Assembly (NCBI GenBank): GCA_045648885.1
Contig: JAZROV010000002.1
Span: 94,628 to 158,627 of the forward strand
Direction: 5' to 3'
Source of the DNA: Candidatus Enterousia sp.
GTDB lineage: Bacteria; Pseudomonadota; Alphaproteobacteria; Rs-D84
DNA: 64,000 bases
Numbering within the stretch: the stretch's first letter is position 1; each line of letters opens with the position of its first letter. The notes beneath the pieces were generated by a model. It saw only the letters and a program-made list of their open reading frames with translations, was not told the origin of the DNA and did not search any database. Of the stretch, positions 12,127 to 12,745 are shown in pieces. The position numbers and the translations under genes were made by a program.

Positions 12127-12486
12127 ATGTTTTATGGGGGTATAGATATGTCCGGAAAGGGTGGTTATATTACAGATACAGATAAAACCATCGGAAAACG
12201 TATTAAATTGCGCAGAATCATGCTTCGAATGACACAATCTGATTTGGCACAGATGTGTGGCATTTCTTTTCAGCAAATACAAAAATATGAATCTGGGGTG
12301 AATCGAATATCTTGTTCGCGATTGTTCAAAATAAGTCATGTATTAAATGTTCCAATTGAATTTTTCTTTGATAACATAAATGAAATGTACAGAACAGAAA
12401 CGCTGGAATTAATCGTTTTGTATTGGGCTTTGTCGAAAGATATCAGAAAAAATCTTGTTTTAAATGTAATTAAACAGTTCAGGTAA
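12127..12486 (+). CDS. XRE-family helix-turn-helix transcriptional regulator
   Basis: IGKRIKLRRIMLRMTQSDLAQMCGISFQQIQKYESGVNRIS is a classic HTH_3 (Cro/CI) signature. The true start may be the internal Met at 12148. Confidence 0.6.
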   Translation: MFYGGIDMSGKGGYITDTDKTIGKRIKLRRIMLRMTQSDLAQMCGISFQQIQKYESGVNRISCSRLFKISHVLNVPIEFFFDNINEMYRTETLELIVLYWALSKDIRKNLVLNVIKQFR

Positions 12487-12488
12487 TC

Positions 12489-12505
12489 TTGCGGGAGATG
12501 GATTT
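12489..12505. repeat. 17-bp direct duplication of the tRNA-fMet 3' end (att-like scar)
   Basis: ttgcgggagatggattt is identical at 12489-12505 and 12672-12688, the latter inside the tRNA. Confidence 0.6.
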
Positions 12506-12668
12506 ATTTCGCTTCGCTTCATTGGCGGCGGATTTTTGCGTTTCACGCAAACCGGCATACTGTCGTCTGCCTAATCCTTGCACTGAACCACCTTATCTCG
12601 GTGGCTCAAATTCAACACAACACACATTAAATAAAAAATACACCACAGGGGTGTATTTTTCATTTAAC

Positions 12669-12745
12669 TGGTTGCGGGAGATGGATTTGAACCACCGACC
12701 TTCAGGTTATGAGCCTGACGAGCTACCGGACTGCTCTATCCCGCG
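12669..12745 (-). tRNA. initiator tRNA-fMet (anticodon CAT)
   Basis: The reverse complement reads CGCGGGATAGAGCAGTCCGGTAGCTCGTCAGGCTCATAACCTGAAGGTCGGTGGTTCAAATCCATCTCCCGCAACCA. It has the C1·A72 mismatch and near-identity to enterobacterial tRNA-fMet. A downstream hairpin terminator lies at about 12634-12660. Confidence 0.8.

Follow-up and report, generated by a model that had tools for sequence, protein, structure and literature searches.

Sublocation classes for integration into tRNA genes were reportedly set out by Williams in 2002. Tyrosine-integrase tRNA integration with a T-loop crossover is exemplified by mycobacteriophage Ms6 at a tRNA-Ala gene (PMC1762012), cis-mobilizable elements (CIMEs) and integrative and mobilizable elements (IMEs) are non-autonomous, flanked by attachment (att) sites and accrete in tandem (reviewed in PMC5704250), and tandem islands at the Dehalococcoides ssrA gene have boundaries formed by ~20-bp repeats that copy the 3′ end of ssrA (PMC3146451). 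Here we describe a locus in a 64-kb stretch of Candidatus Enterousia sp. DNA (contig JAZROV010000002.1, positions 94,628 to 158,627; the whole stretch is called the window, and coordinates refer to it), in which a 17-bp duplication of the 3′ end of an initiator tRNA-Met gene (tRNA-fMet) is part of a unit that we call module M. M (12489 to 12668) is a discrete, full-length, ~180-bp member of a large family and lies at the 3′ end of tRNA-fMet.

As in tyrosine-integrase integration, the repeat of M runs from the T loop to the tRNA 3′ end and the tRNA is left intact, but M is only ~180 bp long, lacks an integrase, an excisionase and arm-type repeats, and contains extra tRNA-derived segments and a covarying fold. 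With the CIMEs, the IMEs and the Dehalococcoides islands M shares tandem accretion at a tRNA-like 3′ end, short direct repeats, the lack of its own recombinase and presumed movement in trans, and the CIME-like traits seen in M include att-type flanking repeats, no recombination genes and precise presence or absence between genomes. Those elements are kilobases long, occupy one site each and derive by deletion from autonomous elements that can be identified, whereas M is a uniform miniature that occurs at many tRNAs, is re-matched to each of them, has a conserved fold and has no autonomous relative that we could find. These comparisons suggest a widespread variant of tRNA-anchored non-autonomous elements. 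We give roughly even odds (about 0.5) to the reading that M is a non-autonomous miniature element, specific for tRNA 3′ ends, that recombines in the T-loop-to-CCA segment by means of an enzyme supplied in trans. What looked like a routine att scar proved to belong to a module that is widespread, conserved and apparently uncatalogued and that stands at many tRNA 3′ ends.

Module M at the 3′ end of tRNA-fMet

On the plus strand, the 17-mer TTGCGGGAGATGGATTT occurs at exactly two places in the window, 12489 to 12505 and 12672 to 12688, and no third copy was present in the 64 kb with up to 3 mismatches allowed. The chance expectation for matches with at most 2 mismatches is 0.04, and two matches were reached in 0 of 100 shuffles. 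The proximal copy lies within a minus-strand gene for tRNA-Met(CAT) at 12669 to 12745 (77 nt, CCA encoded; ARAGORN; Rfam tRNA model, 64.3 bits), which we identified as an initiator because it has the C1:A72 mismatch of bacterial initiators. Read in the tRNA sense, the repeat is AAATCCATCTCCCGCAA and extends from A57 in the T loop to the discriminator A73. The encoded CCA (12669 to 12671) lies outside the repeat, and the distal copy continues into GAT, not CCA. The two copies are separated by 166 bp (12506 to 12671), and the distal one begins 2 nt past the stop codon of an open reading frame (ORF) at 12127 to 12486 that encodes an XRE-family helix-turn-helix (HTH) protein. The original prediction had described a 17-bp duplication of tRNA-fMet positions ~57 to 73, a distal copy right behind the XRE stop and a bracketed interval of ~165 bp, and each was borne out, the two copies matching at 17 of 17 positions. 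The initiator tRNA has A29:U41, leaving two of the usual three anticodon-stem G:C pairs, and the same anticodon-stem sequence occurs in nearly all of the tRNA-fMet genes that we retrieved (those of the window and of the related loci L001 to L082 described below).

The interval between the two repeats, together with the distal repeat, corresponds to a whole copy of M: a covariance model made from an alignment of 26 Enterousia copies matched the window sequence over model positions 1 to 176 with 166.3 bits, and nhmmer gave an E value of 3e-26. All parts of this copy lie on the minus strand and are described in the tRNA sense. The first half opens, right after CCA, with a terminator-like hairpin (12626 to 12668) that consists of an A-tract, a GC stem and a T-tract and was found by a terminator scan. 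It is followed by an antisense copy of tRNA positions ~49 to 76, a short loop and a sense copy of positions 49 to 58. The antisense arm is degenerate across its acceptor portion; its first segment, the 5′ arm P0 (TGTGTGTTGTGTTGAATT, 12609 to 12626), is complementary to the tRNA 3′ end and pairs with the distal repeat, while the remainder and the sense 49-to-58 copy form the hairpin P1 (TGAGCCACC-GAGATAA-GGTGGTTCA, 12584 to 12608; RNAalifold), which combines antisense and sense copies of the T-stem 5′ strand and reaches into the T loop to A57/58. The second half consists of a three-way junction (12530 to 12577), a linker (12506 to 12529) that was delimited in the two alignments described below and differs in length among copies, and a sense copy of tRNA positions 58 to 76, the tail, which is the “direct repeat.” In the window the tail (12489 to 12505) is a sense copy of positions 57 to 73 and ends without CCA; in other copies it is 17 to 20 nt long, has its start within the T loop in all tRNA species examined and in most cases has CCA at its end. 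The junction comprises helices H1 (GGATT/AATCC), H2 (12554 to 12571, with a GNRA-type cap) and H3 (12535 to 12551). M is always oriented in the tRNA sense, directly behind CCA, and carries no gene. When folded, its arms recreate the duplex segment 49 to 76 of the tRNA gene, and the junction domain bulges from the sense strand at T-loop position 58.

Conserved structure and the case for an RNA

The secondary structure of M is conserved on the tRNA-sense strand. We evaluated two alignments, A1, which contains the 26 Enterousia copies with a manually specified structure, and A5, a covariance-model alignment of 69 metagenome copies. In A1, 93.7% of the cells can pair, compared with 84.2% after shuffling and 40 to 49% when the partners were slid; double-sided changes occur in 23 of the 53 pairs, and the observed values were reached in 0 of 500 shuffles. 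On the tRNA-sense strand, G·T outnumbers A·C by 79 to 20 in A1 (35 to 2 in the terminator; 12 to 0 in P1, as one-sided changes). The corresponding figures for A5 are 89.1% paired cells against 66.5% (shuffled) and 38 to 45% (slid), double-sided changes in 48 of 53 pairs and 745 cells against 212 in the shuffles, of which, again, 0 of 500 matched the observed values, and a G·T to A·C ratio of 173:63; these values come from an alignment fitted to the covariance model, and the covariation of the arms is templated by the tRNAs. Among the 69 copies, the terminator helix (helix 1) is 96% paired with double-sided changes in 17 of 18 pairs, and the P0 helices are 76 to 89% paired, all 11 of their pairs covarying with the tail across different tRNAs. 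H1, H2 and H3 contain no tRNA-derived sequence, yet all three show compensatory changes. When diverse copies were aligned with MAFFT alone, P1 and H1 fell out of register and RNAalifold found only H2 and H3, a fault that realignment with the covariance model remedied. Nucleotides in the junction are also kept, including GGU after H2 and purine-rich GAAA/AUGA strands, and in an independently found Enterousia set H2 is capped by the GNRA-type loops GGAA, GGCA, GACA and GAAA.

Single-stranded DNA would yield the same covariation and G·T signal as RNA. Read as RNA, the strong covariation and strand-specific G·U bias, the H2 caps, the conserved junction nucleotides and the complementarity of the 5′ arm to the 3′ third of the tRNA favor a different explanation, in which M would be primarily a structured noncoding RNA or a cis-acting tRNA-trailer domain on the tRNA-sense transcript and the 17-mer its functional tRNA-like 3′ tail. 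The conservation of orthologous M copies between species whose adjoining DUF374 proteins are only 53 to 57% identical points the same way. Such an RNA might act as a tRNA-3′-end mimic, an antisense regulator, a protein decoy or a ligand-sensing three-way junction, and would have spread by a duplicative process. This is the main rival of the mobile-element reading, with which it is compatible and not exclusive; we regard it as possible, if on balance unlikely. A terminator-like hairpin stands between the tRNA and the body of M, and no convincing promoter-like site was found upstream of that body. M is, moreover, dispensable, being absent behind tRNA-fMet in over half of the related species, its copy number varies and includes tandem copies, its tail is decayed or has lost CCA in several copies, the window's included, and it is found together with plainly horizontally acquired cassettes and islands.

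Nor did four M copies match a known RNA family: in Rfam 15, at gathering thresholds and at permissive E values, only tRNAs passed. The best non-tRNA cmscan scores over M were at noise level, with 14.8 bits for YrlA (gathering threshold, 69) and 9.4 bits for transfer-messenger RNA (tmRNA; gathering threshold, 47). Like tmRNA and YrlA, M has a tRNA-derived T-arm/acceptor segment ending in CCA, but it has neither a tag reading frame nor alanine identity. The string GGNUUCGAC...GCGAAA...GUAUGCCG in M may resemble the 5′ part of tmRNA. Known small ribozymes have Rfam entries, and no ribozyme matched M there; a hammerhead core was also considered by eye and dropped, as the junction strands did not fit. 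Searches of the literature by sequence string and keyword found no published description of the module.

Distribution of M and recombination at tRNA-fMet

Relatives of the locus were collected with the neighboring DUF374 protein, taking one genome per species, which gave 80 loci with 52 to 83% amino acid identity from uncultured gut and rumen Alphaproteobacteria (“Candidatus Enterousia” and relatives). In nearly all of them tRNA-fMet adjoins DUF374-LpxK-LpxC. Of 82 related loci, 34 have M, here ~165 to 190 nt long, immediately behind tRNA-fMet (39 type 1 copies, some in tandem), and the tails of M equal each species' own tRNA variant, for example, AAATCCACACTCCGCAACCA, AAATCCATTCCCCGCAACCA and, in L029, ...GCAAGATTT. 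Tandem copies are found in L066, L067, L054, L092, L189 and L209. Two pairs of loci differ by the presence of M: at tRNA-fMet, L004 has M and L009 lacks it, and at a non-initiator tRNA-Met, L064 has M and L073 lacks it; in both pairs the boundaries are exact and the indel consists of M plus one repeat. Some unusual arrangements were also seen. In about ten species (L004, L006, L009, L011, L012, L014, L015, L017, L021 and L062), tRNA-fMet and its array are inverted relative to DUF374-LpxK, so that the array sits between the tRNA and DUF374. In L017 (9718 to 9909), a tRNA-fMet without its ACCA end and terminator is fused straight to P1 of M, and in L044 (~8080 to 8200) the T loop of a partial tRNA copy that starts at the anticodon loop is interrupted by the three-way junction (TTCA|junction|AAAT); L021 carries this partial copy minus the junction.

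M extends well beyond tRNA-fMet. A metagenome collection was scanned with the H2 motif, giving at least 120 loci, about a quarter of which were chance matches in coding DNA. Among the matches listed, the module lies 85 to 113 nt downstream of Met, Ser (GGA/TGA/CGA), Lys (CTT/TTT), Glu, His and Pro (CGG/TGG/GGG) tRNAs, and also of Arg (ACG/CCT/CCG), Trp, Val, Leu, Gln and Thr tRNAs; in all, it stands behind at least 15 tRNA species besides tRNA-fMet on gut and rumen metagenome contigs. In each of these matches, the tRNA next to the module is the one to which its arms and tail correspond, and the repeat begins in the T loop; the loci range from 31 to 56% GC, and tandem copies occur at Glu, Val, Lys and other tRNAs. 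The covariance model recovered at least 69 distinct full-length metagenome copies, which stand behind tRNAs for the same amino acids.

The order of parts in M (tRNA 3′ end, terminator, inverted copy, direct copy) is that expected from hairpin fold-back synthesis, and M might in principle be a by-product of repair or replication, in which fold-back priming at the terminator hairpin or template switching creates a direct-inverted-direct triplication with no dedicated element. We consider this very improbable, as it accounts neither for the precise presence/absence polymorphisms nor for a conserved junction common to different tRNAs and genomes; the shared ancestry of that core argues against fold-back as the sole cause.

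Recombination does have a hot spot at the tRNA-fMet 3′ end in this clade. In sister species it holds islands of 6.6 to 8 kb with P4-type tyrosine integrases, bounded by 37- to 47-nt repeats that start in the anticodon stem/loop; integrase-bearing islands were located in L046, L049, L056, L065 and L073, and that of L056 is inserted between the tRNA and an older M. The original prediction had taken the duplication as the footprint of site-specific integration and proposed comparison of the tRNA-fMet locus between genomes. The duplication of the tRNA 3′ end and the hot spot stand, and the comparison did bring up integrase islands in sister species, but in the window the footprint belongs to a complete M and not to a lost prophage. 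That an integrase-bearing island or prophage lost nearly its whole interior here, leaving attL and attR 166 bp apart, would agree with the use of tRNA-fMet by the sister islands and with a direct repeat of the tRNA 3′ end; nevertheless, such an origin is scarcely credible. The 37- to 47-nt repeats are not present here, the TTTGCTACC-type arm repeats of the L046, L049 and L073 islands are missing from 12489 to 12671, and independent deletions would not yield a structurally constrained unit of ~165 to 190 bp whose architecture stays the same across dozens of loci and over 15 tRNA species. The completeness of the 166-bp copy and its recurrence behind tRNA-fMet and other tRNAs do not support the suggestion that the element had largely been lost.

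The same tRNA end also anchors arrays of single-gene cassettes (L001, 10363 to 13790; L011, L014, L015, L021, L034, L038, L044, L076 and L081). Their cargo includes Fic, RhuM, PHP, EamA, an outer membrane beta-barrel protein, NUDIX, methyltransferases and a lipoprotein, and the lipoprotein cassette recurs in species with only ~55% DUF374 identity. All units of the tRNA-fMet arrays end in ...CAACCA, and the following unit opens with a terminator; units after CCA start GTTAAAT-like in many copies and with AGATTTA or GAATTTA in others. The cassette-end (“N”) site is conserved over 36 nt, AATTCGGYTCGAGAACYGCACACNNNNCRCAACCA (...GAACYGCACAC....CRCAACCA), and was found at 20 sites in 15 loci, always in the tRNA sense, while the window contains none at an E value of ≤1. 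Its antisense strand in L001 (10543 to 10626, 11696 to 11780 and 12510 to 12610, plus strand) reads WL[RC]SVC[SN][SM]R[TA]ELLE[IV].REI... with changes that look synonymous, which may be a candidate peptide or a coincidence.

L001, a Joint Genome Institute (JGI) metagenome contig, represents the species of the window (XRE, glycosyltransferase and DUF374 proteins 100%, 99% and 96% identical, respectively). It contains the 17-mer four times, with M interleaved with three single-gene cassettes, and keeps the window's 166-bp segment beside the XRE gene. Between this segment and the tRNA it has an extra 3.2 kb, composed of two more M-type modules and the three cassettes (a UbiE-type methyltransferase, a lipoprotein and a Peptidase_M55 protein), and the difference from the window starts exactly at ...aactggttg|. 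The sister loci resemble integrons in having miscellaneous single-gene cassettes in one array between conserved sites and a one-strand structure conserved beyond sequence. Unlike integrons, however, they are anchored on a tRNA 3′ end, and no IntI, attI or attC R/L-box pattern was seen adjoining them, no formal attC search having been made; the cassettes end in the conserved 36 nt terminating in CAACCA, which do not look like an attC palindrome, or in a tRNA 3′ copy, and the window has no such cassette.

We found no enzyme linked to M. No PF00589 or other recombinase was detected in the 64-kb window by Pfam searches of all ORFs or by tblastn and phmmer with two integrases from the L046 island, nor was there an integrase, a transposase (the HUH type included) or a reverse transcriptase in the window. 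The 166 bp between the repeats contain no ORF with a recombinase match, and no recombinase was found inside or beside the tRNA-fMet arrays (L001, L011, L021 and others). Around 85 metagenome copies of M, clustering of ORFs found only housekeeping genes and no recombinase among the recurrent ones. No autonomous relative sharing the att sites of M was found among the tRNA-fMet islands, near the 85 copies or in viral contigs, in which the cassette-end pattern also gave 0 matches.

Under the mobile-element reading, M would enter by conservative recombination inside the T-loop-to-CCA segment, catalyzed in trans by an enzyme encoded elsewhere in the genome. The element's own copy would regenerate an intact tRNA, and the host's old 3′ end would be moved to the far side as the “direct repeat”; the XRE gene and the neighboring glycan block would lie outside the element. 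The long hairpin that rebuilds the 49-to-76 duplex with the junction bulged at position 58 suggests that the recombining form could be a folded single strand, as in the attP of CTX-φ or the attC of integrons. Exchange on the sense strand at positions 58 to 60 would give the observed order of parts, whereas the order would be mirrored if, in a CTX-like manner, the continuous antisense arm were exchanged, a model that was rejected. M shares with the folded attP of CTX-φ and of integrative mobile elements exploiting Xer (IMEX) a hairpin mimicking the duplex target, an unpaired crossover region and tandem arrays, but its target is a tRNA T arm and not dif, it has no phage genes, and any involvement of Xer or of a single-stranded DNA stage would be hypothetical. 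Like REPIN/RAYT sequences and repeats resembling miniature inverted-repeat transposable elements (MITEs), M is short, gene-less, hairpin-forming, dispersed and presumably served by one trans-acting enzyme; unlike them, it is tethered to tRNA 3′ ends in a single orientation, and has no fixed terminal repeats as arms but copies of the gene beside it. Both the hairpins and the pentanucleotide of the T loop (TTCGA/TTCAA) beside the junction would be compatible with a palindrome-associated transposable element (PATE) or REPIN derived from IS200/IS605.

Its distribution points to M being mobile or recently mobile, but several observations weigh against a miniature element of this kind. As no recombinase is linked to M, it is from distribution that mobility is argued, and precise absence could equally be explained by homologous-recombination deletion between the 17- to 20-bp repeats. 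Copies inside one genome are diverged while orthologous copies are conserved, which looks more like old selected elements than recent bursts of transposition, and M was not found in 2.9 million viral contigs, where the P1-palindrome pattern gave 7 chance palindromes. The conserved loops, the GNRA-type caps and tandem G·A motifs fit a functional RNA better than they fit a DNA site. H2 served as the search bait, so its conservation in A5 is ascertained rather than independent, a point that adds to the fitting of A5 to the model. The tail of M in the window lacks CCA, and the comparison sequences are mostly metagenome-assembled genomes and metagenome assemblies, in which repeats are liable to misassembly.

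A further difficulty is that a recombinase with a fixed core cannot easily be squared with three tRNA-derived segments that are re-matched to more than 15 tRNAs around a constant junction core. Known recombinase models do not account for this re-matching, which more than anything else keeps a categorically new mechanism in view, namely, that M belongs to an undescribed class of tRNA-linked element with a ~120-nt folded core (RNA or single-stranded DNA) set in a hairpin that is re-templated from the adjoining tRNA. We regard such a class as doubtful. If it were real, its copying or targeting would be novel for bacterial mobile elements, by hairpin-guided single-strand recombination at T-loop position 58 or by tRNA-primed or tRNA-templated synthesis, and M would work alongside integrase-less, integron-like cassette arrays anchored on the tRNA-fMet of the Enterousia clade.

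The hosts of M are bacteria of the gut and rumen that are uncultured and have reduced genomes. A mobile M would be a new type of miniature element, one that uses tRNA genes as targets and leaves them intact, and it would mark loci where accessory genes (Fic, RhuM, a porin-like outer membrane protein, methyltransferases and a GNAT/kinase pair) gather without a local integrase. Small genomes would then have a route of gene flow to which standard finders of islands and integrons are blind. If M is an RNA, it would be a new, sizeable structured class whose arms mimic and complement the 3′ third of a tRNA, and thus an unrecognized layer of tRNA biology. With a covariance model, 69 aligned copies and several occupied/empty pairs, the family is defined well enough for direct testing.

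Other modules and neighboring genes of the window

The window contains a second tRNA-Met gene, a non-initiator tRNA-Met(CAT) at 26366 to 26440, and directly 3′ of it a second family member, M*a (26441 to 26602, plus strand; nhmmer E = 3e-8; covariance model, 49.9 bits). The arms of M*a match this tRNA-Met, and its tail (26584 to 26602) is degenerate. A 45-nt partial copy of the tRNA-Met (29174 to 29218, plus strand) lies farther downstream within an ~84-nt repeat that takes in the terminator, and it is followed, within 29174 to 29390, by a third, diverged plus-strand module, M*b, whose last 19 nt (29372 to 29390) copy the tRNA 3′ end perfectly. Between M*a and the partial tRNA copy is a 2.7-kb low-GC insert without an integrase, which encodes a GNAT protein (26721 to 27275), an APH-like kinase (27275 to 28144) and an HNH protein (28184 to 28507, minus strand). 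No M was found behind the tRNA-Tyr or tRNA-Gly gene of the window.

The XRE-family gene (12127 to 12486, plus strand; HTH_3, PF01381, E = 5e-14) abuts M as an accessory neighbor and not as one of its components. It was found only in the species of the window (L001/L002), with a 56% identical homologue across the tRNA in L008, and is missing in the syntenic L029; by this distribution, it is a nonconserved partner of M. Upstream of the gene (12027 to 12044) is the terminator-like hairpin CTCCAACCAATGTTGGAG, which contains TGGTTG followed by GTGTGCGAATAT (12037 to 12075), a weak look-alike of a cassette end. It was seen by eye only and missed by the site hidden Markov model; we do not rely on it, though it hints that the XRE gene could itself be an old cassette.

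Positions 41 to 11903 are occupied by a surface-glycan block whose position is conserved among species and whose content varies. It includes a 1275-amino-acid fusion with GT1, GT2 and CDP-glycerol glycerophosphotransferase domains, an FkbM methyltransferase and an Mtd_N-domain protein (9188 to 10378). The original prediction had offered this glycopolymer/tail-fiber block as the element, with the 17-mer at 12489 as its att site, and had proposed a check of its composition. The GC content is indeed lower (0.27 to 0.33 in the first 12 kb against ~0.38 to 0.41 beyond), the content differs by species and the XRE gene is lineage specific, as would suit an integrated glycosyltransferase/Mtd_N/XRE element (41 to 12486). 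Low GC is, however, usual for a variable surface-glycan locus and by itself is no proof of an island. The search of 1 to 12488 with at most 3 mismatches found no other repeat, the window opening inside the block, whose left end may lie beyond, and at least 12 other species have related glycosyltransferase/Mtd_N blocks on this side of tRNA-fMet, L029 retaining the order Mtd_N, o10388, o10833, M and tRNA without the XRE gene. The absence of a second repeat in the block and its synteny in other species led us to discard the block as the element; the window also has no integrase, an island junction should abut the tRNA and not stand 166 bp off behind a complete M, and this origin too must be rated a very long shot.

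Elsewhere in the window, a 594-amino-acid ORF (37123 to 38907, minus strand) has matches to FtsA and to ribulose-phosphate 3-epimerase and is either a fusion or two genes joined by the longest-ORF caller, and positions 55880 to 60712 encode three tandem 526-amino-acid AMP-binding (acyl/aryl-coenzyme A ligase-like) paralogues.

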